Assembly (NCBI GenBank): GCA_964498785.1
Contig: CAZCJL010000021.1
Span: 2,818-66,817, forward strand
Reading direction: 5' to 3'
Length of the DNA stretch: 64,000 bases
Origin: an uncultured Cytophagia bacterium
GTDB lineage: Bacteria; Zhuqueibacterota; Zhuqueibacteria; Thermofontimicrobiales; Thiofontviventaceae
Shown: positions 6,165 through 24,556 of the stretch, piece after piece
Layout of the letters: each line of letters opens with the position of its first letter
Numbering within the stretch: the stretch's first letter is position 1
Position numbers and translations under genes: made by a program
The notes under the pieces: model-generated
Told to the model about the DNA's origin: nothing
What the model saw: only the letters and a program-made list of their open reading frames with translations
The model's database searches: none

Positions 6165-9100
6165 ATGAAATCACATTGTGTTTTCAAAATCATTATCGCA
6201 TTTTTACTTGTTCTGTATAAAATTGCCATTTCACAGAGTGATTTTAGCTCCTCATCTTCAAATATTAGCTCCACACAATTTATACCTGGTATATATTACA
6301 AGTATTTTCATGGAACCTGGACAAAATTACCGGTTTTTAATGATGAAAAACCGGTGGCGTCCGGAATTATCAATAATTTTGATATTAGCAATCGCCAGCA
6401 GGACGATCATTTTGCTTTTCAATTTCAGGGATATATTCATATTTCACGAGCTGGAAAATATCAATTTTATTTGAAATCTGATGACGGGGCCAAACTTTTT
6501 ATTAACGGAAAATCAATTGTTGATAACGACAACATGCATGTTGCACGAGAACGGAGCGGATCTGTTCAATTAAGCGAAGGCGTGCATTCCATTGAGTTAC
6601 ACTATTTTGAAAGGGAGGGCAGACAAGTATTGGAGCTACGTTACTCTGGTCCCGGAATAAAGAAAACAAAAATACCGGATCAGGTGTTATTCCGGGAGCA
6701 AATTGCAGGTTTTCCCATGCCCTGGCAGAACGAAGATATCGGACGGGTCTCGATTGGTGGTAGTGCATTCTATAACAATGGAAAATTTATTGTAAAAGCC
6801 TCTGGTGATGATATTTGGGGAGATGACGATGAATTTCATTTCGTCTATTGGCCAATGAATGCTGATGTTGAAATTATTGCAAAAATCAACTCAATAACTG
6901 ATACCGACGACTGGGCAAAGTCAGGGATAATGATTCGCGAATCTTTGAAAGATGATTCAAAACATGCTTTTATGCTAGTCACTCCGGATGAAGGATCCGC
7001 ATTTCAACGCCGCATTATAGATAAAAAAAATAGTTATCACTCCGGAAGCAGCGGTTCCGTTCCCATCTGGCTAAAACTGGAACGGATTGGAAATACATTT
7101 ACAGGTTACAAATCCAAAGATAGTCTGAACTGGATTCGGGTGGGAACCGAGCAGATCAAAATGGAGGATGAAACATACGCCGGAATTGCCCTCACCAGTC
7201 ATGATGATAGAAAATTGTGTACGAGCAATGTCCTAATTTATCTAAGTGGTGTTTACGATGATATCATTTTGACGCCTGAATTTCCTGTATTACCAGCAGA
7301 TGGTAAAAGTACAGTGAGCATTAAATCTGATCCATTATACGGATTTAAGGGCACGATCGTACCACAAGGAACACCGGTCACTGTAACCACAGACATGGGT
7401 AAAATTATTTCAATCGATAAAAATACCGAAATTTCAGGCGTGCAGGTGATGACCGATGAGCAGGGCCAAATCAGTTTTGAGTATCAGGCTGCAAATGAAC
7501 CGGGGATTGCGAAAGTATTTGCTAAAAGTGTTTTCGGAGACGCTAGCGGGGAAACGACCGTCGAACTATTGGGAGAAAACATCCAGCTTGTTTCAACAAA
7601 CTCTGACGTGACAGAGTTATCACAGGGACAGAAAAACATTCCTGTTTCAATGCGCATCCGAAATGAGGGTGTAATGACATCGCATCTTAGCGATGCTGAT
7701 TTAATCATATCCGGAACCGGATCGATTTCAGCCAGAAATCATTTTGATGTTCAGCGAACAGACACTCTGTCGATAGTAAGGCCAGCACAATCTGCAGAAT
7801 TGACTTTTATTGTGTCAGCTCATCCGGATGCTGATACAGTTACATATTCCATTGACGGGCGGTTGGTGACCGAAATTGGAACTTACACCAATTGCCTGCA
7901 TCAACACCAATGGCAGGTTGAATCTACACCCGCGTTACGAATTGAATCTATCGACGCGTTTGCAGACGATATATTTCAAGGACAGGACGGGCTAATTGTG
8001 ACGATGGAAGTGGTAAATAATGGTATGGCAACAGTGGATTCAGTTGACGCAGGATTAACATTTTGGCGCCAGGGTAATGATATTAGCCTGGAATATCAGG
8101 TAACACTAAGTGAGGACACTCCTCAAATAATAGATGGCCATTCAAAAATAACGATAATGTTTTTGGTGAATGTCTCCACATCCGCGACTCTTGATACGAT
8201 TGATATTATTGGTCATTTATCCGGTGTGGATGTGAATTCCGGAATAAAATATCACGCAGATTCTGATGATGCAATAGACAGATGGCTTGTTAAACGAGCC
8301 GAAGGTATTCTTTTTCAGGCTATTGATGTTTCGCATAAATACGCGATTATCGGACAGCAGGAGCCCTGGACTATTCGTACTCATGTGAGAAATGTGAGCG
8401 GTGTTGATTTGGAACTGGATAGTGTACAGGTAAAATTCAACATTTTTAATGAAGATGTGACAGATGAATACAATTTTATTTATCCGGAAACATTTTTAGG
8501 AACCCAAACAGTAGCATTTAATAACGAAGCTGAGGACAGTTTGCAAATTCACGTCAATTCATTCGGCGCCTCAGCCGGATTATTGGAAATAACGATTTTC
8601 ATTTATTGTCATGCACGAGATTTTCATTTTACAGTCAATGATTCAAGCCCGCGCGGGCTGGGTTATATTTTCATCTATGGACCGCCGGAACTGCAAATTT
8701 CCACGGAGATTGATAGCTGTTTTCATATTACTGAAAATGGAGACGGGCTTGTTAATCTGGATCAATCATTTGCAGTGAAGGTACTGGTGCGAAATATTGG
8801 AGATGAAGAGTTAAGTAATGTTGGCGTTACCATTTTGTCTAATGAAGAATGTATTTCAATATCAGATACGTCCCAAATTGCATCATCTGTTTTGAAAAAT
8901 CGATCAGCAACGCTTTTTTATAATTATATCGCGCAGGCAAACCTGGTTCCTGCCGTGGAATATTTTAATGTCCGGGTTGATAGTGCTTTTGGTTCAAAAA
9001 GCGGAGAGCCGGCTAAAATTAATCCGCTTTCCGATATGAACGCCCGGGTAACAATATTCCGCCCCGCTGAATTGCACATTACCGCAGATTCTCTGATTGA

Positions 9101-11285: not shown

Positions 11286-11831
11286 ATGAAACAATCTTCT
11301 TCAATTATACAAACCTGCCAGGAAAGTGTTACCGCTGAAAATTATTATCACAGAAATCGTGGCTTTAGCTGCGTCGGGCTGGTGAGTCCCAGGGATAAAA
11401 AAAATATTGGCTCGGTGATAAGAGCTGCCGGTTGTTTTAAAGCAGCATTTGTTGCTGTCAGTGGCAGTTCGGTACAGGAAAAATATCTTCGGGCAGATCC
11501 AATGAAGATGAATCGTCATTTGCCTGTGCTGCAAGTTTCAGAAATACACAAAGTGCTTCCATTTCAATGCGTACCGGTTGCAGTGGAGTTGGCAGATCAG
11601 GCGATGTCGTTAGTCGATTATCTGCATCCCGGGCGTGCGTTTTACATTTTTGGTCCGGAAAACGGATCGCTCGGTTCCAAAATTTTAAATTGGTGCCAGG
11701 ATGTTGTTTACATACCGGTATCGAATTGTCTGAACCTGGCTGCTGCGGTGAATGTTGTGCTTTATGACCGTCTCATCAAAATGGAAACCAATCAAGGTAA
11801 AATTATAAATTATTCTGACAAAATAATTTAG
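11286..11831 (+). CDS. SpoU/TrmH-family RNA 2'-O-methyltransferase (SPOUT)
   Basis: Motifs NIGSVIRAAGCFKAAFVAVSG, …FYIFGPENGSLG… and VYIPVSNCLNLAAAVNVVLYD are hallmark SpoU motifs 1-3. Confidence 0.75.
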   Translation: MKQSSSIIQTCQESVTAENYYHRNRGFSCVGLVSPRDKKNIGSVIRAAGCFKAAFVAVSGSSVQEKYLRADPMKMNRHLPVLQVSEIHKVLPFQCVPVAVELADQAMSLVDYLHPGRAFYIFGPENGSLGSKILNWCQDVVYIPVSNCLNLAAAVNVVLYDRLIKMETNQGKIINYSDKII

Positions 11832-12197
11832 CCGTAGAGCTATTTCCATCCATTTCAAACAACTACATGTCTTGAAAAACTTCTTGCAAAATCTGGCCTC
11901 CTTCATGGAAAGAGTTTTCTTTGTTATTTACAGTCTTTTAAGTTTTCAGAATTAACTTTCTTCCTGGTCATTCCGATATAATCTTAAATTGCTCAATCTG
12001 ATTTATAATACGCTGCTACTATGGAATGAATTCTATAACAGTGGACATTTTTCCGCAGTTGTTATGAGATTATGGGACATAACTCCAATAAAAAGTATTT
12101 AAACCTGCAAAAAAAATCAGGAATAAATATTGCATAAAAATGATAACTAATGATAATCTTTAACACTTAAAAAACGCATGAAAGGAGGTGAAAATAT

Positions 12198-12413
12198 ATG
12201 GCAGTAGAAAAAACCATCGCTTCTTCAAGCCTGGTAGAAGTTATCGACAGAGTGCTGGATAAGGGTATTGTAATCGACGCCTGGGCTCGTGTATCTTTAG
12301 TAGGTATTGAATTATTGGCTGTAGAAGCCCGCGTTGTTTTAGCTTCTGTAGAAACATATCTAAAATATGCTGAAGCAATCGGCTTAACAGCTACAGCGGC
12401 ACAACCCGCATAA
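12198..12413 (+). CDS. gvpA: Gas vesicle structural protein GvpA
   Basis: 71 aa: [64 protein letters not shown]. This is near-identical to the canonical cyanobacterial GvpA core. A strong SD (AAAGGAGGTG) lies 7 nt upstream. Confidence 0.97.
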
Positions 12414-12594
12414 GTTCATTCATTTTGTGAATCGGGAATTTTTTGTCGAAGCACCCTGAAAATGTGATTCCCTCCGATTAAAAGGGCTTTTATTAAAGCG
12501 TGTTTCGCCATAGATTTCCTGATTTTTTTTGAATTGATTTTCGGAAAACACAATTTCACTGTCGTTCTTCGAATGCGAAAGGGAAATAAGGTTT

Positions 12595-13230
12595 ATGGAT
12601 TTGATTTACAACGTGCAGAAGCTCACAAAGGAAATGATTACAGGTTATGATTTGCGGGTGGCAAAAATTGAAGAAGTATTAACTTCAGCTTATGATGTAT
12701 TAGAAGATTGTCGGGAAAGTAGAAAGAACGTTCGCGAACAGCTCAAACACAGTCTTGCCAATAAAAACTCGTTGCGCCGAAAAGATTTTGATATGATCGT
12801 ACAAGATTTACATCAATCGCAAGTTGAATGTGAAGCTCGAATCAAAGAAACGGTGCACATATTTACCAGGGAAAATAAATATCTTGCTGGGCAATTTTTC
12901 GAATCATTAATAACCGGCAAAATTGAACAGTCTAAAAAGGCTGTTAACAAAATTGAAAAAAACGGGAAAGAGATTCAGCACACAATTAAAACGTTTCAAC
13001 AAGAACAAAAACAAATTGCAACGGATTTGCATTCGTTTCTGGAAAAATGTGAATCGATCCGTATTAAAGATTTTAAAAAAATGATTGAAAAAATTCGTAT
13101 CCGTCAATGTGAACGCAGTGAAAAGATTAAACAGTTCTTAAAAAAAATATCTGAAGAACATAAGCAAATGCGTGCTGTTTGGCAAAATATATCGACTGAT
13201 AAAGCAAAATCACGTAACACGGATGCGTGA
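12595..13230 (+). CDS. Coiled-coil repeat protein in the gvpC position (candidate GvpC-like gas-vesicle shell or scaffold protein)
   Basis: 211 aa, Lys/Glu/Gln-rich with predicted coiled coil. It has an internal repeat about 95 aa apart (SLRRKDFDMIVQDLHQSQVECEARIKE vs SIRIKDFKKMIEKIRIRQCERSEKIKQ). It lies immediately downstream of gvpA, where gvpC sits in cyanobacterial and Serratia clusters. Confidence 0.45.
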   Translation: MDLIYNVQKLTKEMITGYDLRVAKIEEVLTSAYDVLEDCRESRKNVREQLKHSLANKNSLRRKDFDMIVQDLHQSQVECEARIKETVHIFTRENKYLAGQFFESLITGKIEQSKKAVNKIEKNGKEIQHTIKTFQQEQKQIATDLHSFLEKCESIRIKDFKKMIEKIRIRQCERSEKIKQFLKKISEEHKQMRAVWQNISTDKAKSRNTDA

Positions 13231-13262
13231 TTTTCACAAAATGAAGTTAACGGAGGTACATA

Positions 13263-14618
13263 ATGTCAAATTTAGATGATATGATGCGACTGAAAGAGGA
13301 GATCATCGCTTCGTTTGACGAGCGAATGAATACTCTTGCAAATATAGTTGAATCAACAACTGATCTCGCACAGTCAACACGAGAAATGACTGAACGACAT
13401 CGAAATGATCATCTTCTTATGAAAAATAATTTACAGTCACAATTAAGTGAATTTAGAACAAAATTGAGCGACGATAATTTAAAGCGCCTTGTTGCGACAA
13501 AGCATGAATTTAATGAAAGAATGAGTCAATTAACTGACTTGCTTGCTGCGTTTAAACCGGACGGAAAGTCGGAGTTGACACATTCAGTCAGAGAAACATT
13601 AGAAAAATTTCGTTCGGTGCGACTCGATGAATTCAATGTATTTTTGGAAAAATTACAGCAGCGTATTTATGAAATTAAAGACGAAGTTCATTCGACGATA
13701 GATGGGTTTAAGGAATCTCGGCATGAAATATCTGCCGCATTAGAGCGAAATTTGTCTGAATTTAATAAACAGCTTAAAAATTATCGGTCAACGCTTTCGA
13801 ACAACGAAAATAACAGATATAAGCAGGCGCAGGCAGAAATTCAAGAACGTACCATTTATCTGAATACTCTTTTTGGCGACGTCTCACGTTTGTTAAGCGA
13901 TTTTCGCACGGATCACCAGAAAATGTCGTCGATGTTAAAGGAGATGTTAACATTTAAGGGTTTCAATAACCAGCGGTTGAGCAATTTTCAAAATATGATG
14001 GATAATATTCTGGATCATCAGAAAAAGCGTGTTCACGATACAACCCAAATGATCTCAGGTTTTAATGAGTGGCATGATGATATAAAAAATGAATTGCATG
14101 ATCTGCTTTCTACTGTAAAATTGAATTTAGCGCAATTTAACGATGAACGCGTCAATTTAGCTCATGAAGAAATGAGTGAGCGCGTGGAATATATTTATCA
14201 AATGAAAAAAGACATCTCCACCATGCTGGGAAATTTGCGTAGTGAAAGCCAAAAAGTAGCGGACGAATGGAAGAATATCGCCAGAATAATAGACCAAAAA
14301 AGAAAAAAATCAGAAAAGGAACACATAAAGATTATTTCAGAAGAAGAACCTGAAATAAAAGCGCCAAAACCAGCGCCAGAAATGGAGAAGCAGGAAATTG
14401 TATCGAAAATGTATGCTTCGAAAACAGCGTCTGAAAATGATAACGACCCGAGTGACAAAATACTGGCTATTATCGCGCAACATGCTGATGAGGGAATTAA
14501 ATTGGCTGAAATTGGCAAGATTGTGAATAAAAAATGGCAGTCACTAATTCCTTTTACAAAAACACTTATGGAGCAGGGAAAGATAAAAAAAGAGGATACT
14601 GTGTATTTCCCGAATTAA
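13263..14618 (+). CDS. Large coiled-coil repeat protein (second GvpC-like candidate) with a C-terminal winged-helix-like segment
   Basis: 451 aa. A recurrent x[DEGN]F[RNKQ] motif appears at residues 64, 83, 116, 124, 149, 167, 213, 234, 242, 267 and 292. There is a clear internal duplication of about 118 aa (residues ~116-167 vs ~234-292). A Pro/Lys/Glu linker (EEEPEIKAPKPAPEMEKQE) precedes a C-terminal globular segment (ILAIIAQHADEGIKLAEIGKIVNKKW…). Confidence 0.45.
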   Translation: MSNLDDMMRLKEEIIASFDERMNTLANIVESTTDLAQSTREMTERHRNDHLLMKNNLQSQLSEFRTKLSDDNLKRLVATKHEFNERMSQLTDLLAAFKPDGKSELTHSVRETLEKFRSVRLDEFNVFLEKLQQRIYEIKDEVHSTIDGFKESRHEISAALERNLSEFNKQLKNYRSTLSNNENNRYKQAQAEIQERTIYLNTLFGDVSRLLSDFRTDHQKMSSMLKEMLTFKGFNNQRLSNFQNMMDNILDHQKKRVHDTTQMISGFNEWHDDIKNELHDLLSTVKLNLAQFNDERVNLAHEEMSERVEYIYQMKKDISTMLGNLRSESQKVADEWKNIARIIDQKRKKSEKEHIKIISEEEPEIKAPKPAPEMEKQEIVSKMYASKTASENDNDPSDKILAIIAQHADEGIKLAEIGKIVNKKWQSLIPFTKTLMEQGKIKKEDTVYFPN

Positions 14619-14665
14619 ACTGAGCTGAACCTGAAACCTAATATTACGCCTGGGAGAAATAGTCT

Positions 14666-15580
14666 ATGAACAATAATTCCACCGTCGTTCTTGAGCCGCT
14701 ATTAGATGATGAATATGTAATTACTCCGTATTTGAAAGATATCCTCGAATCAGCAAGCAATTACATGGATGCTGGTTATCCGATTCATTTCTGTGGACCG
14801 GCAGGAACTGGCAAAACATCTCTTGCTATGTATCTGGCAGCAAAATATAACCGACCGATCGTAATGATGCACGGGGATAATGAATTTGTTACCTCAGATT
14901 TAATTGGCGCTGAGCACGGAATTCGATCTCGAAAAGTGGTGGACAATTTTATTCATCATGTTTATAAAACCGAGGAACGCATCGACCGACAGTGGATGGA
15001 TAAACGACTTTCTCTGGCATGTAAAAAAGGTTTCACGTTAATTTATGATGAGTTTACCCGGTCAAAACCAGAGGCCAATAATGTATTGCTTTCAATCCTG
15101 GAAGAAAGAATGCTTGACCTTCCCGCACAAGTGAAGGGGGATGTTTATATAAAAGTACATCCTGAATTCAGGGCAATTTTCACAAGCAATCCGCAGGAAT
15201 ATGTTGGCATACATCGGGCGCAAGATGCATTGTTAGATCGGATGATTACAATTGATTTACAGCATCTTGATTTGGATACGGAAATTCGGATTACACAAAA
15301 AAGAGCTGACCTCACTTATAAGCACGCCAAAAAAATAGTGAATATTGTCCGCAATTTTCATATAAAAAATGGTAATGAAAAAATTTCCACATTGAGAGAT
15401 GCCATAAAAATCGGTAAAATTTCCAAATTGATGAATATCACACCATCTAAATCACAAAATAGATTTCGGAAAATATGTGTTGATATTTTAACATCAGATC
15501 CTCACATTCACAAATTTAATGGCGCTCCAAAATCTCAGTCCTTGAAATTTCTGGATGAACTTATCGAAGTATATTGTTAA
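14666..15580 (+). CDS. gvpN: Gas vesicle protein GvpN (MoxR/CbbQ-type AAA+ ATPase)
   Basis: 304 aa with Walker A (HFCGPAGTGKTSLA), Walker B (LIYDEF) and CbbQ/NirQ/GvpN-type architecture, lying between the gvpA and gvpO/F genes. Confidence 0.9.
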   Translation: MNNNSTVVLEPLLDDEYVITPYLKDILESASNYMDAGYPIHFCGPAGTGKTSLAMYLAAKYNRPIVMMHGDNEFVTSDLIGAEHGIRSRKVVDNFIHHVYKTEERIDRQWMDKRLSLACKKGFTLIYDEFTRSKPEANNVLLSILEERMLDLPAQVKGDVYIKVHPEFRAIFTSNPQEYVGIHRAQDALLDRMITIDLQHLDLDTEIRITQKRADLTYKHAKKIVNIVRNFHIKNGNEKISTLRDAIKIGKISKLMNITPSKSQNRFRKICVDILTSDPHIHKFNGAPKSQSLKFLDELIEVYC

Positions 15581-15601
15581 TATAACAGAAAGGGGTGAAT
15601 T

Positions 15602-15856
15602 ATGGCGCTTCAAAAGGTTATCGCTGCAATTAGCAACTTTTTTGAATCTGTATTAAATAAAAAGGGTCGGGTGATTGAGGTGAAAACTCAGGAGCGCGGC
15701 TGGTCTGCCTTGGTGGAAACAGTGGAAGAAGCCGAGTACATGCGCAAAATTGCCCAGGATGATCTGCTTGCTGTATATGAGGTTCACGTTGATCAAAATT
15801 ATGAAGTGGTTGACTACAGTCGAAAAAGTTTGCGTTCGAGAAAAGAAGCTGCATAA
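15602..15856 (+). CDS. gvpO: Gas vesicle protein GvpO
   Basis: 84 aa. The motif …GRVIEVKTQERGWSALVETVEEAEYMRKIAQDDLLAVYEVHVDQNYEVVDYSRK… matches the GvpO pattern (GW-V-VE-VE…LLA-YEV…G-VV-Y-R). An SD (AAAGGGGTGA) is present. Confidence 0.8.
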   Translation: MALQKVIAAISNFFESVLNKKGRVIEVKTQERGWSALVETVEEAEYMRKIAQDDLLAVYEVHVDQNYEVVDYSRKSLRSRKEAA

Positions 15857-15865
15857 GGTTTAAAA

Positions 15866-16192
15866 TTGAAAGGCGGTATTGGTATGTCACAAATTAAAGG
15901 ATTAAGTAATATTCGCTCCAGCCAGAGAATCCATCTAAGTTCTATTTCTAAAAAAGGACGTTCGAAATTCTTGACGCTGTTTATGTTGGATAATGAACGG
16001 CAATTATTGCAGAAAGATAGTGATATTTTGAAACAACGGCAATCAAGAAATCAGGAGCGGATTAAAGCAATTAACGCTGAGATTAATGAAAAACTGCAGC
16101 ACGATAGTGCAATGATTAATAAAAATGAAAAGGGACATTCTTTGATAAGAAAAATTCCGGAAAAGTGGAAGACTGCAAAAATCGATGTTTAA
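15866..16192 (+). CDS. Small basic coiled-coil protein of unknown function inside the gvp cluster
   Basis: 108 aa (or 102 aa from the second Met, MSQIKGL, at about 15884). It is rich in K/R/Q and sits between gvpO and the first gvpF/L. I recognised no known family. Confidence 0.4.
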   Translation: MKGGIGMSQIKGLSNIRSSQRIHLSSISKKGRSKFLTLFMLDNERQLLQKDSDILKQRQSRNQERIKAINAEINEKLQHDSAMINKNEKGHSLIRKIPEKWKTAKIDV

Positions 16193-16224
16193 AAATAGTG
16201 AAAGCGAAAAGTAATGGTGGAAAA

Positions 16225-17238
16225 ATGGCGGCAAAATATTTATACGGATTTATTGAGACTGATCGTGAGGAGAATTTCGGGAATATAGGCGTCGGTAATC
16301 AGAACAGGGTAACGACAATTCGTTATCGTGATGTTGCAGCAGTTGTTAGTGATCATCCTGTGATACAGTTTGATCAATTAGATGAAAGTCAGTTAACGAA
16401 CTATATTCAAAAACATCAGGTGGTTAATGAAAAGGTGCTGGAAAAACATACCATCATTCCGTTGAGGTTCGGAAACATTGCCCAAAATGCAGCAGATGTT
16501 CTGAAAATATTAAAACATGCTTATATTCAATTTAAAACACAACTGGATCAGTTGCAGGGAAAAATCGAACTTGTCATTCAGGCTACCGCGAACAAACAGG
16601 TCTGGTTGAAGGAGATCGTCGAGACAAATACGACGATAAAAGATTTGACAAAGAAATTGGATAAATCCGATGCGCAGGAGAAAATTCCCATCCAGGTCGA
16701 AATCGGAAAAATAATTCACAATACAATCGTACATAAAGAAAAAGAGATAGTCGTTGATATATTGGCAACACTTCGAAATGGCGGAAGTCCATATAGATCG
16801 GATAAATTACTGACCCAGGATATGATAATGAATATGTCCTTTTTAATTGATAGAACTGCTGAGTCTGCGTTTGATCAAAAATTAAATGAATTAGGGCAAC
16901 GATATGCAAATGATCTCACTTTCAAGTATATTGGCCCGCTACCGCCGTACAGTTTTACACAATTGAATTTAAAAACCACTGATTTGAATTTCATTAATAA
17001 TGCGCGAAAAATGCTGAATTTGCCAGGGAAAGCCTCAAAAAAGGAGATCAAAAAAGCGTATCGAACAATGGCGTCAAAATATCATCCGGATAGGACTGGA
17101 AATGATTCTCAAAAATTTAATGAAATTCACAACGCGTATCGCACTCTGGAAGTGTTTTGCAATAATTACCGCTATTCATTTGATGAAAAAACAATAAGTG
17201 AAACAGTGCTTATTGATGAACATTATAAAGAAGAATAG
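16225..17238 (+). CDS. GvpF/GvpL-family gas vesicle protein fused to a C-terminal DnaJ J-domain
   Basis: The real start is MAAKYLYGFIE at 16225, with a GGTGGA SD 5 nt upstream; the 16165 ORF start is an upstream extension. GvpF/L hallmarks are present: YLYGFI…VTTIRYRDVAAVVS…IPLRFG…KYIGPLPPYSF. The last ~70 aa (LPGKASKKEIKKAYRTMASKYHPDRTGNDSQKFNEIHNAYRTLEVF) form a J-domain with an intact HPD motif. Confidence 0.8.
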   Translation: MAAKYLYGFIETDREENFGNIGVGNQNRVTTIRYRDVAAVVSDHPVIQFDQLDESQLTNYIQKHQVVNEKVLEKHTIIPLRFGNIAQNAADVLKILKHAYIQFKTQLDQLQGKIELVIQATANKQVWLKEIVETNTTIKDLTKKLDKSDAQEKIPIQVEIGKIIHNTIVHKEKEIVVDILATLRNGGSPYRSDKLLTQDMIMNMSFLIDRTAESAFDQKLNELGQRYANDLTFKYIGPLPPYSFTQLNLKTTDLNFINNARKMLNLPGKASKKEIKKAYRTMASKYHPDRTGNDSQKFNEIHNAYRTLEVFCNNYRYSFDEKTISETVLIDEHYKEE

Positions 17239-17242
17239 TAAT

Positions 17243-18004
17243 ATGGGAAAATATATTTACTGCATTGTCGAAAACAGAGACCATCCGCAATTTACATCGA
17301 AAAATATTGGCAAAGAGTATTCTCCTGTTTATACCCTTAAATATAAAGATATTGGGGCAGTTATTAGTGAATCTCCGATTACAAAATATTCGTTTATTAG
17401 TGATAATTATATTGCACATCAAAAAGTAATTGAAGAATCTCAATCATACAATTTAAATCCATTACCAGTTCGGTTTTGCACAATTGCAAATAATGAGGAG
17501 AGCATTTGTGCAATATTAGATAAACGATATGAAGATTTTCAAGCGAATTTAAAACAGATGCAGGGAAAATACGAACTTGGTTTGAAAGTATTTTGGAAAG
17601 ATAATATTGCCTATGATGAAATTTTGCTGAACAATCCATCTATTCAAGCAGAGCGAGATCGATTGAAATCAATGGATCCTGAAAAAACCTATTTTCTACG
17701 TATCCGCGTTGGAGAGCTGGTTGAAAAAGCGATTACTGAAAAACGCGAACGTGAAATGCAAGAATTCATCAATCGTTTTCAGAATATTTGTTATGATTTA
17801 TCCATGGGACGTATCATTGGCGATAAGATGATATTTAACGCAGCATTTTTAGTCGATCGTGGCCAGGAAAAATTATTGGACGAAGAAGTGAATCGAATTG
17901 CTTTTGATAATGAATCTCGTTTGAAAATTAAATATGTTGGACCGGTTCCTCCATATAATTTTGTAGAAATTACGATAAATACGAATGAACTCGGTTTAAA
18001 TTAG
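17243..18004 (+). CDS. gvpF: GvpF/GvpL-family gas vesicle protein (paralog 2)
   Basis: Starts MGKYIYCIVE at 17243, after the upstream stop at 17236-17238. Motifs YIYCIV…YKDIGAVISE…PVRFCT…KYVGPVPPYNF are present. Confidence 0.8.
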   Translation: MGKYIYCIVENRDHPQFTSKNIGKEYSPVYTLKYKDIGAVISESPITKYSFISDNYIAHQKVIEESQSYNLNPLPVRFCTIANNEESICAILDKRYEDFQANLKQMQGKYELGLKVFWKDNIAYDEILLNNPSIQAERDRLKSMDPEKTYFLRIRVGELVEKAITEKREREMQEFINRFQNICYDLSMGRIIGDKMIFNAAFLVDRGQEKLLDEEVNRIAFDNESRLKIKYVGPVPPYNFVEITINTNELGLN

Positions 18005-18018
18005 GGATAAAATAAATA

Positions 18019-18249
18019 ATGGCGTTCATCATCGATGACATTTTATCACTGCCGGTTAAAGGAATCATCGGAATTTTCAAAGAAATTCATAACTACGCAG
18101 ATAAAGAGTTAAACGATATAGATTTCTGGCAACAAAAATTGCTCGAATTACAACTTCGTTATGAAATGGGGGAAATAGAGGAGCTGGAATTTAAACAACA
18201 GGAGAAAGATATTGTACAACGAATTTCCGAAATTCAAGAACGAGGATAA
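18019..18249 (+). CDS. gvpG: Gas vesicle protein GvpG
   Basis: 76 aa. MAFIIDDILSLPVKGIIGIFKEIHNYADKEL… matches the GvpG N-terminal MFLIDDLL…P pattern, and its position after gvpF is canonical. Confidence 0.8.
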   Translation: MAFIIDDILSLPVKGIIGIFKEIHNYADKELNDIDFWQQKLLELQLRYEMGEIEELEFKQQEKDIVQRISEIQERG

Positions 18250-19048
18250 TTTATATCTTTACTGTGTGCGGGAGAGGCGTGCCAATGAATTAAACGTGAC
18301 CGGTATATTTAATCAGGAAAAGGTTTTTTCGATCGTTTGTAAAAATTTAGAAGCAATTGTCAGTATTGTCCCGCAAAATCAATTTGATGATACTGATATA
18401 AAGAAGAAGGCACGGGAAGATATCAACTGGATAAAGGAAAAGGCGCAACTCCACGAGGCAATTGTGGAAAAAGCGATGTATCATTCATCAGAAATATATC
18501 CGGTTATTCCCATGCGGTTTGGAACGATTTTCAAATCAAAAGAAAAAATTAATCACCTGCTAACAAAGCACTACCATCAGTACAGCAATACAATTGCCCG
18601 TCTGACAAAAAAACAGGAATGGAGTGTAAAAGTATATCTGACGCATCAGGATCGGATCACCGATCATGTTGTTAGCACCAACGAATTTATCAAAAAAGAA
18701 CAAGCAGATGTCGCGGTTTTACCAAAAGGAATGGCCTATTTCATGCAAAAAAAACTTAACGAAATGGTAAAAAACGCTGTTGACGACAAAATGAATCAAT
18801 ATGTTCACGATATCATTGAGAGATTGGAAAAACATTCAACAGGACGTCACGAAGGAAAATTACTGGGACCGGAATTTACCGGGAAGAAAGCAACAATGGT
18901 TCTGAATGCAATTCTCCTGATTCATGAGGAAAGTGTTTTGGATTTAATTGAGGCAATACAGAAACTTCAGGATGAAATGAATGTTTTCGGGTTCCGGTTT
19001 GAATATAGCGGTCCGTGGCCTCCGTATCATTTTGTGGAGTCGCAGTAA
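18212..19048 (+). CDS. gvpL: GvpF/GvpL-family gas vesicle protein (paralog 3, GvpL-like)
   Basis: 278 aa with motifs LYLYCV…PMRFGTIF…FEYSGPWPPYHF. Its annotated start overlaps gvpG by 38 nt, so the start is uncertain. Confidence 0.7.
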   Translation: MYNEFPKFKNEDNLYLYCVRERRANELNVTGIFNQEKVFSIVCKNLEAIVSIVPQNQFDDTDIKKKAREDINWIKEKAQLHEAIVEKAMYHSSEIYPVIPMRFGTIFKSKEKINHLLTKHYHQYSNTIARLTKKQEWSVKVYLTHQDRITDHVVSTNEFIKKEQADVAVLPKGMAYFMQKKLNEMVKNAVDDKMNQYVHDIIERLEKHSTGRHEGKLLGPEFTGKKATMVLNAILLIHEESVLDLIEAIQKLQDEMNVFGFRFEYSGPWPPYHFVESQ

Positions 19049-19049
19049 A

Positions 19050-19589
19050 ATGAATAATACTTTTGCAGAAAAAGAGGTGACGCTGCTGGATGCGCTGGAC
19101 AGGGTTATCGAAAATGGTGCGGTCATAAGTGGTGATCTTACATTAAAAATGGCTGATATTGATTTGATCTATATTGGATTGCGGCTTATTGCAACATCCG
19201 TCTCAAAAGTTGAAAGCATGAATGGTTCGTCCCATCAATGCCCGGATCGGGAACCCACGGAACATGAATCAAATTACATACAAAAACTTGACTCTGAAAT
19301 TATAAAAGCAGAGCAGAATATTTCACAGTTGATTGAATTGCAAAATCCTGAAAAAACAGAGCAGGGACTGGCGCAAATAGTTTTGACTCTTGTGGTTTTA
19401 TTAAAAAGACTTATGGAACGGGAAGCCATGCGCAGAATTCAGCGCGGAGCATTATCCAATGTTGCAATTCAGAAACTGGGGTTGACGTTTATGGCGCTTG
19501 ATAAAAAGGTGGACGAACTCAAGTGTGTTTTTGGTCTCAAAGATGATGATTTAAATATTGATTTAGGCCCTTTGGGAAATTTGATGTAG
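19050..19589 (+). CDS. Fusion of a GvpJ/GvpM-like (GvpA-fold) domain and a GvpK domain
   Basis: The real start is probably MNNTFAEKEVTLLDALDRV at 19050, just after the gvpL stop. The N-domain LLDALDRVIENGAVISGDLTLKMADIDLIYIGLRLIATSV is GvpA/J/M-like. The C-domain GLAQIVLTLVVLLKRLMEREAMRRIQRGALSNVAIQKLG…DELKCVFGLKDDD matches the GvpK consensus (LVQLVLTVVELL…LEREAVRR…G.L…E.LG). Confidence 0.7.
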   Translation: MNNTFAEKEVTLLDALDRVIENGAVISGDLTLKMADIDLIYIGLRLIATSVSKVESMNGSSHQCPDREPTEHESNYIQKLDSEIIKAEQNISQLIELQNPEKTEQGLAQIVLTLVVLLKRLMEREAMRRIQRGALSNVAIQKLGLTFMALDKKVDELKCVFGLKDDDLNIDLGPLGNLM

Positions 19590-19629
19590 CAATTATTACT
19601 GCAATTTTGCAGTAAGTCAGGAGATAAAT

Positions 19630-19950
19630 ATGTCGGAACAGATAACCCACGGACTTCATTCCACAAATCTCGCGGATATTTTAGAGAGAGTATTGGATAA
19701 GGGGATTGTAATTGCCGGAGATATCCAAATTAAGCTTGCGGATATTGAGTTGCTAACGATAAAAATACGACTTATGGTGGCGTCTGTAGATAAAGCCGTT
19801 GAAATGGGAATTAATTGGTGGGAAAGTGATCCTTATTTAAATAATAATTCCAACGAATTAATCGAAGAAAATAATCAATTAAAAGAAAAATTAAATAAAA
19901 TTGAACGACAACAACAGCAGCGTAAACGAGGGTTAAAAGATGGAGAATAA
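19630..19950 (+). CDS. gvpJ: Gas vesicle protein GvpJ
   Basis: 106 aa. [57 protein letters not shown] shows a GvpA-fold plus the GvpJ-typical 'WW…DP.L' region and a basic C-tail. Confidence 0.85.
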   Translation: MSEQITHGLHSTNLADILERVLDKGIVIAGDIQIKLADIELLTIKIRLMVASVDKAVEMGINWWESDPYLNNNSNELIEENNQLKEKLNKIERQQQQRKRGLKDGE

Positions 19951-20470
19951 TAAAAAGAAAAAAGAGAAAGAACATGAGGTTAAAATAGATTTTGGGTTAG
20001 GAGGTTTGTTTAAAGGGCTCGGCAATCTGGTTGACCTTGTGTCTGAAATGTCTGAAAAAGGGGAGCAGATCAAGGAAAGAACGCAGGAATTTTCTGGTAA
20101 AGGTCCGTTCAAGGATGTGAACGGAGTTTATGGATTTTCAATTAAAATGGGCGCGAGTGGAAAACCTGAAGTAAATTCTTTTGGAAATGTAAAGAAAAGT
20201 CAAAACGGGCCTGTGGTTGATGAGGTGAGAGAACCGATGGTCGATATTTTTGAGGAAGATGATGAAATTCAGATCATCGCGGAAATGCCAGGTGTGGCTA
20301 AAAATCAAATCAAATTAGAATTGAATGGTGATGTGATGATGATTAGCGCGCAAAATAACAAACGAAAGTACCAGAAAGAGCTATTGTTACCAACACCAGT
20401 GAAAGAGCAGACAGTGGTCTATTCTTATAAAAATGGTATTCTTGAAGTTAAATTGGCGAAAAATTCATAG
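19940..20470 (+). CDS. Hsp20/alpha-crystallin small heat-shock protein (GvpH-like)
   Basis: 176 aa. The alpha-crystallin domain REPMVDIFEEDDEIQIIAEMPGVAKNQIKLELNGDVMMISA…VVYSYKNGILEVKLAK follows a Lys-rich N-terminus. Confidence 0.8.
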   Translation: MENNKKKKEKEHEVKIDFGLGGLFKGLGNLVDLVSEMSEKGEQIKERTQEFSGKGPFKDVNGVYGFSIKMGASGKPEVNSFGNVKKSQNGPVVDEVREPMVDIFEEDDEIQIIAEMPGVAKNQIKLELNGDVMMISAQNNKRKYQKELLLPTPVKEQTVVYSYKNGILEVKLAKNS

Positions 20471-20500
20471 CACTATTGAAAAAAGGATCCGGAGAGTCGA

Positions 20501-22639
20501 ATGGCGGAATCTACTGACAAAACGATTATACGATTGAGGGTAGCCGAATCGATGGCAAAAGATGTTGGCCGCGGGATTGCGCGCATCGACCCTGTTGATA
20601 TGAAGGCAATAAATGCCAGCGTTGGTGATATTGTTGAGATTGCCGGAAAAAGAAAAACAGTTGCCAAACTGATGCCCACGTATTCTGAATATCGGGAAAA
20701 AGGTTTAATCCAAATCGACGGCCTGATTCGAGAAAATGCCAAAGTGGGGCTGGATGAGCGCGTCGGAATCAAAAAAATCGAATCCCAACCGGCGACTAAA
20801 ATAATACTGGATCCGCTGTCCATTATTTCCGGTAGTTTACGAGAAAGCCGTTATATTGGTCGATTAATTGAGGGATTACCATTACAAAAGGGCGACCGCA
20901 TCCGGGCGAATTTAATCGGTTCCCGGTCCCAGGATTTTACTGTCATTGATACGAATCCGGGAGGAGTGGTGATGGTTCAGCCGTCCTCTCTTATTCAGAT
21001 TAAATCCAGAGATGAACAGAAGAAAGCTGGTCAAAAGATATCTTATGAAGATATTGGCGGTCTTCACAAAGAGATTCAACGAATCCGCGAAATGATTGAG
21101 CTTCCGCTAAAATATCCTCAAATTTTCCAACGGCTGGGAATTGACCCGCCAAAAGGAGTGCTGTTACTGGGGCCACCGGGAACCGGAAAAACGCTAATTG
21201 CCAGGGCGGTTGCAAACGAAACAGAAGCCTCATTTTTTGCGATCAATGGTCCGGAAGTGATTCATAAGTTTTACGGTGAAAGTGAAGCAAAACTACGCAG
21301 CATTTTTGAACAGGCAAATAAACAAGCGCCGAGCATCATTTTTCTCGACGAAATTGATGCGATATCACCAAAACGTGAATCTGTGGTTGGTGATGTTGAA
21401 AAAAGAGTTGTGGCTCAATTATTAGCTCTTATGGATGGACTTGCCAGCCGGGGACAGATTATCGTAATTGGCGCGACAAATATTCCCAATGCAATAGACC
21501 CGGCACTGCGCCGCCCCGGACGGTTTGATAGGGAAATCACCATTGGTGTTCCCGATAAAAAGGGGAGAGAACAGGTTCTGGAAATTCATACTCGTGGTAT
21601 GCCTCTGGCGGCAGATATTGATTTAAAAAGACTTGCCGAAATGACCCATGGCTTTGTCGGTGCAGATTTAGCAGCGCTATGCCGCGAATCGGCAATGAGC
21701 GCTTTGCGTACTATTTTCCCTAAAATCGATTTTGGTATGGATTCCATTCCCTATGAGACTATCCTGGAACTGGAAATAAACATGGACCACTTTTATGAGG
21801 CAATGAAAGAGGTAGAACCCTCTGCCACCCGTGAGGTATCTGTAGAAGTACCGAATGTCCGTTGGGATCAGGTTGGAGGATTGCAGGACGTAAAACAAAA
21901 ATTAATTGAAGCAATTGAGTGGCCGTTAAAATATGCGGAATTATTCGAAATTGCCAAAACGACTCCGCCGAAAGGAATTGTTTTACACGGACAACCGGGG
22001 ACCGGGAAAACATTATTGGCTAAAGCAGTGGCCACAGAAAGCGAGGTGAATTTTATTTCCATCAAAGGGCCGGAATTATTATCGAAATGGGTTGGTGAAA
22101 GCGAAAAGGGCGTTCGGGAGCTTTTTAAAAAAGCACGCCAGGCGGCTCCGTGCATACTCTTTTTTGACGAAATTGACGCCATTGCACCGGTTCGAGGCAG
22201 TGGCGGCTCAGATTCGCATGTTACAGAAAGAGTTATTAGTCAATTGCTCACTGAATTGGACGGTATCGAGGGCTTAAAAAACGTTGTCGTGATTGCGGCA
22301 ACAAACAGAATCGATATTATTGATGCGGCAGTATTACGACCGGGTCGATTTGATTTTTTGATCGAGCTTCCGGTGCCGGATCCTGAATCCAGAACAAAAA
22401 TATTCAATGTTCATTTGCATGATAAACCATTAGATAAAGATGTGAAGATTTCGAATTTGGTCAATGATACAGAAGGATTTGTAGGAGCAGACATCGAATC
22501 AATTTGTCGATATGCTTCCATGCTGGCAATTCGTGATGTAGTGGAGTCGCAAAAAGGGGATCAATTTGATTTAGAAAAGCTTCGATTAACTATGAAACAT
22601 TTTAAAATAGCGATTAACGATGCCGGTCAAAGGACTTAA
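20501..22639 (+). CDS. CDC48/VCP/VAT-type AAA+ ATPase (N-domain plus tandem D1 and D2 rings)
   Basis: 712 aa with an N-terminal double-psi-barrel-like segment. There are two Walker A sites ([22 protein letters not shown]), two Walker B sites ([18 protein letters not shown]) and second-region-of-homology motifs. Confidence 0.85.
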
Positions 22640-23105
22640 ACAGATAAAAACGCTTTCTTCAACTCGTCGAATTTCTGATAAAAATGGTCTCAATAAAATC
22701 AGTTCTTTAACAGTTATCAGGCACGTTCAAGCTCCTCCTGTAAAGAATCACCAGTCATATTCGCCAAAGACATGGGTTTTTATTGCAGAGCCAAAATTTG
22801 TGCGTTACCGGCAAAGTTTGCTTATCGAACGCTCTGAGGAACCTATGACTGAACTTTTCCAGGAAGCAGAAGCTGTTATTGTTATCGCTGAAATTCCGGG
22901 TGTTGCAGGAACAGACGATTTGAAATTAACGGTGGAAGGGGATATTTTAATTCTTGAAGCAATGGTCCGGGGGAAACAGGCCAATCGAAAATATTTTAAA
23001 GAAATCATCATCCCATTTCAAATAAATGAACGAGATATTGTTTTTTCATTAAACAACGGACTATTTGAAATTAAGTTATTTCCCCTAACCAGGAGGCATA
23101 AATGA
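22620..23105 (+). CDS. Divergent Hsp20/alpha-crystallin-like protein
   Basis: The C-terminal ~85 aa resemble an alpha-crystallin domain ([37 protein letters not shown]…[14 protein letters not shown]). The annotated N-terminus overlaps the AAA+ gene by 20 nt, so the true start may be internal (e.g. MTELF at about 22845). Confidence 0.55.
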
Positions 23106-23491
23106 GTTATATAAAAGTAATGGTCGTTGATGATAACGATGAAATACTTGATTTATTTAAAGATTTATTTCAAGAATTAAAATACCATGTGATGCTGGCA
23201 CATGATGGTAATGAGGCATTGCAATTATTCAAAAAAGAACAACCAGATGTAATTTTTCTGGATATTAGGATGCCTGGCCCGGATGGTATCGAAACACTTA
23301 AAAAATTAAAGCAAATTGATAATGGTAATAATGCAACAGTTGTGATGATAACAGGTTACGGTGATATTGAAACAGCCAGGCAGGCGATGCAATTGGGCGC
23401 TTACGAGTATCTTACAAAACCAATTGATTTGAATGCAATCAAGTCGATCTGTGAAGAAGTTATAGAAGAAACGGTGGTTGTGAATGCCTGA
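23102..23491 (+). CDS. Stand-alone response-regulator receiver domain (CheY-like)
   Basis: 129 aa. VMVVDDNDEILDL…DVIFLDIRMPGPDG…MITGYGD…KP shows the Asp pocket, the phospho-acceptor D in LDIRMP and the conserved K. There is no output domain. Confidence 0.85.
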   Translation: MSYIKVMVVDDNDEILDLFKDLFQELKYHVMLAHDGNEALQLFKKEQPDVIFLDIRMPGPDGIETLKKLKQIDNGNNATVVMITGYGDIETARQAMQLGAYEYLTKPIDLNAIKSICEEVIEETVVVNA

Positions 23492-24110
23492 TTTGATTTA
23501 TGTGCCAATCGTTCATACAGAAGCAGATTTGGGTACTCTTGCCAAATCGTTCAAAAATGAATATACGAAAAAATATTCAAGGCAGCGTTATGAAAACCAT
23601 GTTCAGACTATTCAGAGAATGTGGGATGAAATTAGTGTTTCATTATTAAAGATGGATCTGGAATGGCACAAAATACGGATATATCAGGATGGCCTTCCGG
23701 TATGTGGAAAAGAAGCTGAAATTGTCACAGAATTAGCCGCGCAGGGAAGCCGAAATCATCAATTAGTATTATTACTGATTGAAAAAGGTGCTCATTTAGA
23801 GGGAACTGAAGACAAAAAATTGCTATTAGAGGAATATCAGCATTATCAGAATATTTTTAATGCCAAAAGTCCTGTTATAAAAAACAGGTTGCTACACAAT
23901 TATCAAAAGAAAAGCGAGAAATTGTTGTACCAGCGGGATCAATTTGTTGCGAAACAAATTACAAACACACTGCGAGCGGGTGAAACCGCAATCCTGTTTA
24001 TGGGAATGCTCCATCATGTTGAACAATTTCTTGATAAAAAGATTCGTATTCAATACCTGATCCGCAGGCTTCCGTTGCATAAAAATGCTCGGTTAACAAC
24101 TGTCGAGTAA
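23484..24110 (+). CDS. Hypothetical protein of unknown family, translationally coupled to the receiver gene
   Basis: 208 aa with an 8-nt overlap with the receiver gene. I recognised no motif. It is the last gene of the plus-strand gvp block. Confidence 0.4.
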   Translation: MPDLIYVPIVHTEADLGTLAKSFKNEYTKKYSRQRYENHVQTIQRMWDEISVSLLKMDLEWHKIRIYQDGLPVCGKEAEIVTELAAQGSRNHQLVLLLIEKGAHLEGTEDKKLLLEEYQHYQNIFNAKSPVIKNRLLHNYQKKSEKLLYQRDQFVAKQITNTLRAGETAILFMGMLHHVEQFLDKKIRIQYLIRRLPLHKNARLTTVE

Positions 24111-24112
24111 AA

Positions 24113-24556
24113 TTATGGTTCAGTTTTTCTTTTCTGAAACGCTTTGTTTAAGATAATCTGAGTGGCTTCGGGAATATCGATAGATATTAATTCGTCATGC
24201 GAAAACCATCTGGCGTCTTTAGCGTCTGTATCAGCAGAAAGTTCACCATTTAGATAGATCGCCTCATAATCGACTAAAATATAGTGATATTGCACAGTTC
24301 CATTTTCATCTTTCAGAATCAAATCCAAGACGTCAATCACCTCGCCAATAGTTACTTTGATATTACATTCTTCCATAATTTCGCGTGCACAGGCTTTTTT
24401 TAGTTCTTCGCCAAGTTCAACAAGGCCGCCAGGCAAAGCCCAGAGACCAGCGCTTGGATCTTTACTTCGCTGGATTAATAATACTTTCTCGTTTTTATTG
24501 AATACAACGGCGCCAACGCCAACCATCGGATAGTCCGGATATGCGCGTCCTTTCAT
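24113..24556 (-). CDS. NUDIX hydrolase
   Basis: The Nudix box GGLVELGEELKKACAREIMEECNI matches GX5EX7REUXEEXGU. Confidence 0.85.
   Translation of the reverse strand: MKGRAYPDYPMVGVGAVVFNKNEKVLLIQRSKDPSAGLWALPGGLVELGEELKKACAREIMEECNIKVTIGEVIDVLDLILKDENGTVQYHYILVDYEAIYLNGELSADTDAKDARWFSHDELISIDIPEATQIILNKAFQKRKTEP

Follow-up and report, generated by a model that had tools for sequence, protein, structure and literature searches.

A gas vesicle operon carrying chaperone genes in a KSB1-type bacterium, and its relation to gas vesicle clusters of other phyla

A stretch of 64,000 nucleotides from an uncultured bacterium (contig CAZCJL010000021.1 of assembly GCA_964498785.1, positions 2,818 to 66,817), here called the window, contains a gas vesicle (gvp) gene cluster at window positions 12198-24110 on the + strand. 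The cluster is probably a complete gvp biogenesis operon of a class that spans several phyla and carries its own proteostasis module, comprising a holdase, a J-domain/Hsp70 element, and an unfoldase. As a gvp cluster it is ordinary, and it clearly exemplifies a widespread class with chaperone genes, of which no description was found in the literature searched (open-access papers and preprints). A broader statement is offered only tentatively: most environmental gvp clusters may encode a dedicated chaperone line of three parts, without which vesicles would not form efficiently. The three parts would be a GvpH-like small heat-shock protein (sHsp), a GvpF protein with a J domain (GvpF-J) that leads to DnaK, and a Cdc48/VAT-type ATPase in the place of ClpB.

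Gene set and organization of the cluster

The open reading frame (ORF) listing has 17 intact + strand reading frames, which are tightly packed and uninterrupted across 12198-24110 (Table 1). The same genes are obtained when the contig is called independently from a public read-set assembly, and that call agrees with the likely true starts at 15884 (small basic protein), 16225 (GvpF-J), 17243 (second GvpF), and 19050 (J/M-K fusion). The contig is also present in run SRR7048224. Every named gene assignment is backed by hidden Markov model scores from Pfam and NCBIfam. The original prediction had listed the gvp core, two Hsp20 proteins, Cdc48, a receiver protein, and a protein of no known family; all of these calls are correct, and the scores support GvpN, GvpO, GvpF, GvpG, GvpJ, and GvpK.

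GvpA matches the Anabaena flos-aquae protein (PDB 8gbs) over its full length (71/71 residues, 112 bits). It is 96% identical to a Zhuqueibacterota GvpA and about 85% identical to the GvpAs of other phyla. A strong GGAGG ribosome-binding site can be read in the sequence 5' of gvpA. The GvpN translation contains a Walker A motif, GPAGTGKT, and a Walker B DE. The essential genes of haloarchaea are gvpA, F, G, J, K, L, M, and O. All have counterparts in the cluster that pass the Pfam cut-offs, namely A, three F/L proteins, G, J, K, O, and a second A-like (M-type) domain, with the assignment of "L" and "M" among the paralogues being uncertain; the number of eight essential genes is from Offner 2000 (via PMC7688916). 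The fusion of the J/M-type domain to GvpK is also found in Chloroflexota, Patescibacteria, Zhuqueibacterota, and Syntrophus loci. The KSB1 locus L004 has the J/M-type domain and GvpK as two separate genes. No further gvp gene and no Hsp70 was found by search elsewhere in the 64-kb window.

From CC1, the first gene after gvpA, to U208, the last gene of the cluster, every intergenic gap is 47 nt or less. Five gene pairs overlap, including gvpG and the third gvpF/L gene (38 nt), gvpJ and hsp20a (11 nt), and cdc48 and hsp20b (20 nt). The chaperone genes are thus translationally coupled to the gvp genes. Within the block, only the spacer 3' of gvpA exceeds 47 nt. Its hairpin has a predicted RNA folding energy of -49.9 kcal/mol (z -2.0 versus shuffles), and together with the eight U residues it is possibly a partial terminator or attenuator that sets the ratio of GvpA to the accessory proteins.

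Similarity to the KSB1 locus L004 and the Zhuqueibacterota locus L020 is confined to the stretch from gvpA to U208, with both limits exact, and none of the flanking genes is shared. Because the similarity stops at both ends, 12198-24110 is a self-contained block. A scan of 11700-24400 for sigma-70 promoters and intrinsic terminators found sites that were fewer or no more than in shuffles, and is uninformative for a Fibrobacteres-Chlorobi-Bacteroidetes (FCB)-type organism. About 20 related loci (e.g. L026, L061, L063, L069, L086, L103, and L106) have sigma-54 matches of the form TGGCAC-N5-TTGC(T) at 80-125 nt 5' of gvpA, and NtrC-type regulators are encoded in many of the related clusters with such matches. 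The match in the window, TGGACATTTTTCCGCA at 12041-12056, is only weak and keeps the GG/GC spacing. The closest relatives lack any such match, and a sigma-54 promoter is not claimed for the window.

Table 1. Features of the gvp cluster, with window coordinates and supporting matches
Feature	Position	Strand	Evidence
gvpA, major shell protein, 71 aa	12198..12413	+	PF00741 57.8 bits; PRK09371 133.5 bits vs cut-off 100
Spacer distal to gvpA, 181 nt	12414..12594	+	long hairpin at about 12429-12525, then eight U at 12526-12533
CC1, helical charged protein, 211 aa, in the gvpC position	12595..13230	+	no Pfam or NCBIfam family
CC2, helical charged protein, 451 aa	13263..14618	+	about two CC1-like modules and a C-terminal tail of about 80 aa
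gvpN, AAA+ ATPase	14666..15580	+	TIGR02640 equivalog 341.9 bits vs 266.8; AAA_5 62.7 bits
gvpO	15602..15856	+	PF05800 33.1 bits vs 25
SB102, small basic protein, 102 aa	15884..16192	+	gvp-linked family without annotation
gvpF with C-terminal J domain (GvpF-J), 337 aa	16225..17238	+	GvpL_GvpF 184 bits; DnaJ PF00226 51.1 bits
gvpF paralogue 2, 253 aa	17243..18004	+	GvpL_GvpF 208 bits
gvpG	18019..18249	+	PF05120 57.1 bits vs 30.6
gvpF/L paralogue 3, 278 aa, TTG start	18212..19048	+	GvpL_GvpF 188 bits; best against GvpL model NF045778, 81 bits
GvpA-like (J/M-type) domain fused to GvpK, 179 aa	19050..19589	+	Gas_vesicle 48.7 bits; GvpK 93.3 bits
gvpJ, 106 aa	19630..19950	+	Gas_vesicle 65.6 bits; best NCBIfam match halo_gas_GvpJ
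hsp20a, small heat-shock protein	19940..20470	+	NF041800 "archaeal Hsp20" 160.6 bits vs 140; HSP20, ArsA_HSP20
cdc48, Cdc48/VAT-type double-ring AAA+ unfoldase, 712 aa	20501..22639	+	TIGR01243 954.5 bits vs 802.65; CDC48_N 88.5 bits, CDC48_2 36.1 bits
hsp20b, divergent second sHsp, 161 aa	22620..23105	+	NF041800 57.3 bits (E 1.4e-15, below cut-off); Pfam HSP20 E 0.0066
Receiver-only (CheY-like) response regulator, 129 aa	23102..23491	+	Response_reg 108 bits
U208, 208 aa, family without annotation	23484..24110	+	predicted fold like ChaN/TraB/erythromycin esterase

The J domain of GvpF and the neighboring DnaK

More than 40 homologues of GvpF-J contain the two domains. The HPD tripeptide (H287-P288-D289) is invariant across the 27 fusions compared. 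The AlphaFold2 model of the window protein has a mean confidence (pLDDT) of 89.4. It contains the GvpF fold, with a Foldseek TM-score of 0.83 to Anabaena GvpF (6l5d), and the J domain can be superposed on those of known structure, including the DnaK-bound 5nro_B (1.7 A over 52 columns). The modeled protein thus has the features that define a J domain, i.e. the predicted fold with HPD between helices II and III.

A DnaK-type Hsp70 of 591-598 residues lies 3' of GvpF-J in 22 loci, comprising 21 proteobacterial loci and one from Bacteroidales. The proteobacterial paralogue abuts GvpF-J in 21 loci, often with a 4-nt overlap, and the Bacteroidales gene is about 4.5 kb downstream. Pairs of GvpF-J and DnaK occur within the complete gvp clusters of Marinobacter, Nitrosomonadales, and Gallionella. 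This downstream DnaK paralogue is the strongest evidence that the J domain would work with an Hsp70. The distinct chaperoning route that was originally suggested is something we still infer from genes, and the DnaK paralogue beside GvpF-J makes it much better supported than before.

GvpF-J also occurs with an overlapping DnaK as a stand-alone pair in Methylococcaceae, including the cultured Methylobacter psychrophilus, and in Thiocapsa (L023, L025, L028, L033-L035, L038-L040, L042, L044, L045, and L047; e.g. L035:9926-12771). Other gvp genes are absent within 10 kb on either side of these pairs. In the Zhuqueibacterota metagenome-assembled genome (MAG) of locus L020 (10118-11493), the GvpF-J orthologue is split into ORFs of 146 and 197 residues, which may be due to a frameshift, a pseudogene, or an assembly error.

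Cdc48 and the small heat-shock proteins

The AAA+ protein of the cluster comprises an N domain and two AAA modules with intact Walker A/B motifs and Arg fingers, and by its sequence belongs to the Cdc48/VAT/p97 family. Its closest solved relative is Thermoplasma VAT (5g4f, 730 bits). Walker A/B pairs and Arg fingers of both rings are kept in all of the gvp-linked copies (44/44), which are 54-80% identical to the window copy across phyla. The pore loops of the window protein are KFYG and KWVG, and all 44 copies have aromatic pore loops, K[FY]YG in D1 and [KR][YWF][VI]G in D2. Archaeal Cdc48 docks to the 20S proteasome by a C-terminal HbYX motif. This motif is present in 0/44 gvp-linked Cdc48s, and the window protein ends in ...DAGQRT. 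The lack of HbYX in any gvp-linked copy suggests an unfoldase or segregase that works on its own and does not cap the proteasome.

Hsp20b is a paralogue of Hsp20a (E 5e-17), and its orthologues in KSB1 and Zhuqueibacterota are 46% identical. Over its full length, Hsp20a has 41% identity to a Cdc48-adjacent sHsp of Terriglobia, which passes the Pfam GvpH model (PF05455, 31 bits vs 22). Neither Hsp20a nor Hsp20b matches the GvpH model, even at E <= 10. The window sHsps thus appear from their sequences to be relatives, not demonstrable members, of GvpH, and belong to an sHsp family that seems to grade into haloarchaeal GvpH.

Occurrence of the chaperone genes in other gvp clusters

Two samples of loci were compared. 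A scan of one genome per species with an 11-sequence GvpF-J alignment gave 56 loci, whose ORFs were searched by iterated profiles of all window proteins. The second sample comprises the best 80 of at least 600 metagenome matches to GvpA, among which 28 loci that extend 4 kb or more past gvpN are informative. Hsp20 and a full-length Cdc48 are present in 19/28 of these GvpA-seeded loci, Hsp20 in 23/28, and GvpF-J in 15/28; these counts are lower bounds, as the loci end 10 kb past gvpA.

The module of an Hsp20-Cdc48 pair with GvpF-J is found inside gvp clusters of at least 11 phyla, with Acidobacteriota and the Beta- and Gammaproteobacteria among the groups named. Its carriers are KSB1, Zhuqueibacterota, six Patescibacteria lineages, Dehalococcoidales, Nitrosomonadales, Gallionella, Burkholderiales, the cultured Marinobacter gelidimuriae, Syntrophus, Bacteroidales, and Spirochaetales. 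Chaperone components are also seen in clusters of Atribacterota and Thermotogota, and Terriglobia and Planctomycetota loci add to the conservation of the module. Atribacterota, Petrotogaceae, and one Terriglobia contig have Hsp20-Cdc48 with an unfused GvpF. A Ktedonobacteraceae (Chloroflexota) contig contains Hsp20, Cdc48, GvpF-J, a U208 homologue, GvpF, GvpG, GvpF, the J/M-K fusion, and GvpJ, and its GvpA and GvpN are divergent. The three cyanobacterial-type loci sampled (L081, L130, and L137) contain no Hsp20, Cdc48, or J domain (3/3).

The commonest gene order is gvpA, one or two helical proteins, gvpN, the small basic protein, Hsp20, Cdc48, GvpF-J, GvpF, GvpG, GvpO, GvpF, J/M-K, and GvpJ. 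The window and the KSB1 and Zhuqueibacterota loci have Hsp20-Cdc48 shifted to the 3' end, with a second sHsp, the regulator, and U208 added. The order of all 17 genes is identical in the Zhuqueibacterota MAG (L020) and near-identical in the KSB1 MAG (L004).

Complete gvp clusters with Hsp20-Cdc48-GvpF-J are present in MAGs of Patescibacteria, or candidate phyla radiation (L006, L008, L009, L014, L016, and L019), from Minisyncoccales, Saccharibacteria, Doudnabacteria, Falkowbacteria, and Spechtbacterales. These are tiny episymbiont-type bacteria in which gas vesicles seem to have been little discussed. No description of gas vesicles in Patescibacteria with the chaperone module was found among open-access papers and preprints.

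Comparison with known systems

Haloarchaea: The published gene list is gvpACNO/DEFGHIJKLM (PMC7688916). The p-vac and c-vac clusters of Halobacterium salinarum and the window have GvpA, GvpN, GvpO, GvpF, an L-like protein, GvpG, GvpJ, an M-like protein, and GvpK in common. Haloarchaeal GvpH resembles Hsp20a and Hsp20b in being an sHsp-related accessory protein that counters aggregation of a GvpA-family protein, and GvpI resembles the small basic protein SB102 by analogy only. In contrast, the window lacks the GvpD and GvpE regulators and a recognizable GvpC, and adds Cdc48/VAT, the J domain of GvpF, the J/M-K fusion, a third GvpF, the CheY-like regulator, and U208.

Cyanobacteria: The list published for Anabaena is gvpACNJKGFVW (PMC11445434). 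The cluster of Anabaena flos-aquae and Microcystis, gvpA-C-N-J-K-F-G-V-W, has a GvpA of near-identical length and sequence, and also GvpN, GvpJ, GvpK, GvpF as well as GvpG in common with the window. A helical protein lies directly 3' of gvpA in both, and SB102 may correspond to GvpV. Unlike the cyanobacterial cluster, the window has no GvpC with 33-residue repeats.

Bacteroidota, Chlorobi, and Geobacter: Hsp20 and an ArsA-type ATPase in gvp clusters were noted in 2010 (Castillo and Saier, PMC2963123). Those clusters and the window have a second ATPase beside GvpN, Hsp20, and multiple GvpF/L proteins, and Hsp20a of the window also matches the Pfam "HSP20-like domain found in ArsA". The second ATPase of the window is a Cdc48/VAT double-ring protein instead of ArsA, and no J-domain fusion is reported for the ArsA-type clusters (PMC2963123).

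Serratia: The gvp cluster of Serratia sp. ATCC 39006 has the regulators GvrA, GvrB, and GvrC and three GvpF paralogues. The window also has three GvpF paralogues and a two-component regulator within the cluster, but differs in its receiver-only regulator, weak sigma-54-like match, lack of an in-cluster kinase, and chaperone module.

Archaeal VAT/Cdc48: The Thermoplasma acidophilum protein (5g4f) and the window copy have an N domain, D1, D2, and aromatic pore loops in both rings. The window copy differs in its bacterial host, the lack of HbYX, and a gene that is embedded in a gvp operon.

The bi-chaperone system: The sHsp-DnaK/DnaJ-ClpB system comprises an sHsp holdase, a J-domain factor that targets Hsp70, and a hexameric double-ring AAA+ threading machine. 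The set in the window matches these three functional classes. It is not a member of the system, as its AAA+ protein is a Cdc48/VAT without the ClpB M domain for DnaK docking. Its J protein is a client-specific Gvp protein, and the whole set lies inside the operon of the client.

The view that the accessory genes depart from the known paradigms thus holds in part. The haloarchaeal and Anabaena lists contain no Cdc48, J domain, J-K fusion, or DnaK, while Hsp20 was already on record in 2010. The Bacillus and Serratia clusters are not known to contain any of these four either. A 2022 review of gas vesicles does not mention Hsp20, Cdc48, or DnaJ, and no open-access paper or preprint was found that links gas vesicles to CDC48, DnaJ, a J domain, or Hsp70. 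The architecture is already common among sequenced genomes, but not among experimentally characterized organisms.

Proposed assembly pathway and alternative explanations

Published work provides a basis for a chaperone pathway. Unassembled GvpA2 aggregates, is proteotoxic, and kills E. coli (PMC12848028), and aggregates of the shell protein withstand even SDS (PMC11445434). GvpF is the only GvpA binding partner in Halobacterium, and haloarchaeal GvpH is reported to prevent the aggregation of GvpM (PMC7688916). It has also been proposed that GvpF chaperones GvpA2 and passes it on to GvpG (PMC11445434).

The proteins of the GvpA family are extremely hydrophobic and prone to aggregation. In the proposed pathway, the two GvpH-related sHsps would hold unassembled GvpA, GvpJ, and GvpM subunits. 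GvpF-J would bind GvpA, as GvpF does in Halobacterium and Bacillus, and its HPD-bearing J domain would switch on the ATPase of DnaK. The DnaK partner would be the housekeeping protein here, and the dedicated adjoining paralogue in many Proteobacteria. GvpF-J and DnaK would keep the client soluble and pass it to GvpG and the growing shell. Cdc48/VAT may thread and extract mis-assembled or aggregated shell subunits, and would take the place of ClpB in sHsp-DnaK-ClpB disaggregation. GvpN would power shell growth, and the CheY-like regulator and the ChaN/TraB-fold protein U208 may form a conserved regulatory or processing pair.

Several points weigh against this pathway and the class that it would define. 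The proposed order of holdase, Hsp70, and unfoldase is taken purely from the ClpB paradigm. KSB1 is uncultured, and vesicle formation and the role of every member are predictions from genes. Neither the cluster nor the rest of the window encodes an Hsp70, and the DnaK partner is thus an assumption. Bias to relatives of the cluster affects both locus samples, through the GvpF-J seed of one and the choice of the 80 most similar GvpAs in the other, and their percentages are not a census. In the stretches examined, GvpF-J occurs without Hsp20-Cdc48 in a Patescibacteria MAG (L012) and in the cultured Prolixibacteraceae JC049 (L049), and Hsp20-Cdc48 occurs with an unfused GvpF in L053/54, L058, and L061. 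Since these loci carry subsets, the chaperone parts are separable and need not belong to a single obligatory pathway.

The same proteins could instead serve turnover, with the Cdc48, sHsp, and J-Hsp70 set recycling GvpA from collapsed or surplus vesicles, and so lowering buoyancy or reclaiming amino acids. A full Cdc48 unfoldase with aromatic pore loops in both rings is the type of machine that pulls subunits from stable assemblies, the SDS resistance of shell protein aggregates is in line with such a need, and no other disassembly factor for gas vesicles was found in the literature searched. This explanation is nevertheless considered unlikely. The chaperone genes are translationally coupled to assembly genes, the commonest arrangement puts them between gvpN and gvpF so that they are made alongside assembly factors, and a J domain on the GvpA-binding GvpF fits the delivery of new subunits better than the removal of old ones. 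Assembly and turnover are not decisively separated, and both roles could hold. It is also improbable that the cluster is silent or that its product is other than buoyancy vesicles. Soil actinomycetes are discussed as carrying gvp genes without visible vesicles, there is no cultured KSB1 strain, and the promoter and terminator scans are uninformative. Against this, 17/17 reading frames are intact, catalytic motifs are conserved, all eight haloarchaeal essential genes have counterparts, and the GvpA identities to the relative and to other phyla point to purifying selection.

Slightly less credible still is an ordinary archaeal-type Hsp20-Cdc48 heat-shock cassette that merely travels or is co-regulated with the gvp genes and has no role in vesicles. 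In some archaea, such a pair of Hsp20 and an AAA+ protein makes up a heat-shock operon. The score of Hsp20a exceeds the cut-off of the "archaeal Hsp20" model, the nearest solved relative of Cdc48 is archaeal VAT, and one genome paper took a neighboring hsp20 as a link to heat shock (PMC7325909). However, the adjacency to gvp genes is kept in at least 11 phyla despite a rearranged order and flanks that are not conserved. The pair lies embedded among gvp genes, a Gvp protein carries the J domain as a covalent fusion, and the sHsp family overlaps GvpH, which is a recognized Gvp protein. The original prediction had placed a distinct chaperoning route in this lineage in particular, and this part of it can hardly be upheld. 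The 3'-end order of Hsp20, Cdc48, Hsp20b, response regulator, and U208 is indeed seen only in the window, L004, and L020. The components themselves are common to Patescibacteria, Chloroflexota, Proteobacteria, Bacteroidota, Spirochaetota, Atribacterota, Thermotogota, Acidobacteriota, and others, and the phylum counts and GvpA-seeded loci given above contradict a lineage-specific route.

Other genes of the cluster

CC1 and CC2: CC1 contains 36% charged residues and no proline. CC2 has a heptad autocorrelation (z 4.1) and is 41% identical to its Zhuqueibacterota counterpart. CC1 aligns twice onto CC2, at residues 1-173 and 210-367. One or two helical charged genes lie 3' of gvpA in nearly all related loci. 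Neither protein matches Pfam GvpC at E <= 0.01. They have no clean periodicity of 33, 66, or 99 residues, the 33-residue peak being one of many weak ones, and identification as GvpC was dropped. The description as two coiled-coil repeat proteins thus stands for their helical and charged nature and the heptad signal in CC2, but not for clean repeats of the GvpC type. They are kept as GvpC-position proteins, and a GvpC-like role may be proposed from their position only. GvpC is not universal among gvp clusters. The last 80 or so residues of CC2 (window 14370-14615) have a near-threshold winged-helix match (B-block_TFIIIC, 20.7 bits vs cut-off 22).

SB102: This protein has 22 K+R and 11 D+E residues and is thus basic. 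Its family has 51 members among 141 loci, each of about 100 residues and usually directly 3' of gvpN. The family core resembles "S.YL.LYML..EK.RL.KE", and most members end in Y, the window protein in V. SB102 has no Pfam or NCBIfam match, and NCBI lists the members as "hypothetical protein". It matches a small ORF beside gvpG in the cyanobacterial-type locus L081, where gvpV lies (iterated E 1.3e-13). It shares with haloarchaeal GvpI its basic character and, where the genes have their common order, its place beside a GvpH-like gene. By its sequence and position SB102 may be a candidate counterpart of GvpV or GvpI. The name GvpV was not adopted, as neither SB102 nor the cyanobacterial-type ORF has a match in NCBIfam or Pfam, and all database names are "hypothetical".

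Response regulator: The translation contains the receiver positions DD, D54, T, and K. Orthologues that are 53% identical occupy the same position in L004 and L020.

U208: The family has at least 373 homologues, none of which is annotated, and U208 has no Pfam or NCBIfam match. It is linked to gvp genes in nine lineages (e.g. L060:8001-8588 and L061:2737-3405), and adjoins a response regulator, CheY-like or NtrC-type, in most loci that show both. Invariant residues comprise His, Asp, Cys, Glu, and Arg, with H11 and H177 in PxxH and GxxH contexts. The predicted structure shares the fold of the ChaN/TraB/TIKI/erythromycin-esterase superfamily. The two contexts are reminiscent of GxxH motifs of the superfamily. 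U208 is probably an enzyme.

Host and flanking genes

The window encodes MutS, DnaB, two RelA/SpoT proteins, Lnt, a BamA-family protein, and Mrp antiporter subunits, and belongs to a diderm chromosome. Among relatives with a name, the best matches to MutS are from candidate division KSB1 (90% and 72% identity), Zhuqueibacterota (70%), and Calditrichaeota (68%). Upstream of the cluster is a PA14 protein of 1584 residues (window 6165-10919, +) with a type A sorting domain of the type IX secretion system (T9SS) at its C-terminus (TIGR04183, 29.3 bits vs 23). Judged by these genes, the host is a KSB1-type member of the FCB superphylum. The original assignment to a T9SS-bearing, non-cyanobacterial diderm is correct, and is here sharpened to a KSB1-type FCB bacterium.

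A SpoU methylase gene separates the PA14 protein from the gvp cluster. Two tandem full-length RelA/SpoT genes lie at 31415-33634 and 33732-35945 (-), with 622 and 725 bits to TIGR00691. A tRNA scan of the window found none.

Implications for gas vesicle biology

How the hydrophobic GvpA stays soluble and enters the growing vesicle is an open question. The natural GvpF-J fusion has the architecture of a client-specific Hsp70 co-chaperone, and makes the proposal that GvpF is a chaperone directly testable. The systematic presence of Cdc48/VAT and GvpH-like sHsps suggests that general proteostasis machines have been recruited to the assembly of an organelle, which would be an unusual job for a bacterial Cdc48. 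If true, this would be the first organelle-specific function of Cdc48 in bacteria, and would provide direct evidence for the role of GvpF.

Gas vesicles serve as acoustic reporter genes, and the expression of native clusters in E. coli is affected by the same question. In one screen, 10/15 native clusters were vesicle-free in E. coli, the clusters having been picked for the fewest "non-gvp" genes (PMC10344784). If the proposed pathway is true, it would be a likely reason why many native clusters that are cloned without such genes fail in this host. The complete gvp clusters of Patescibacteria, KSB1, and other uncultured phyla bear on how these bacteria position themselves in stratified waters and sediments.

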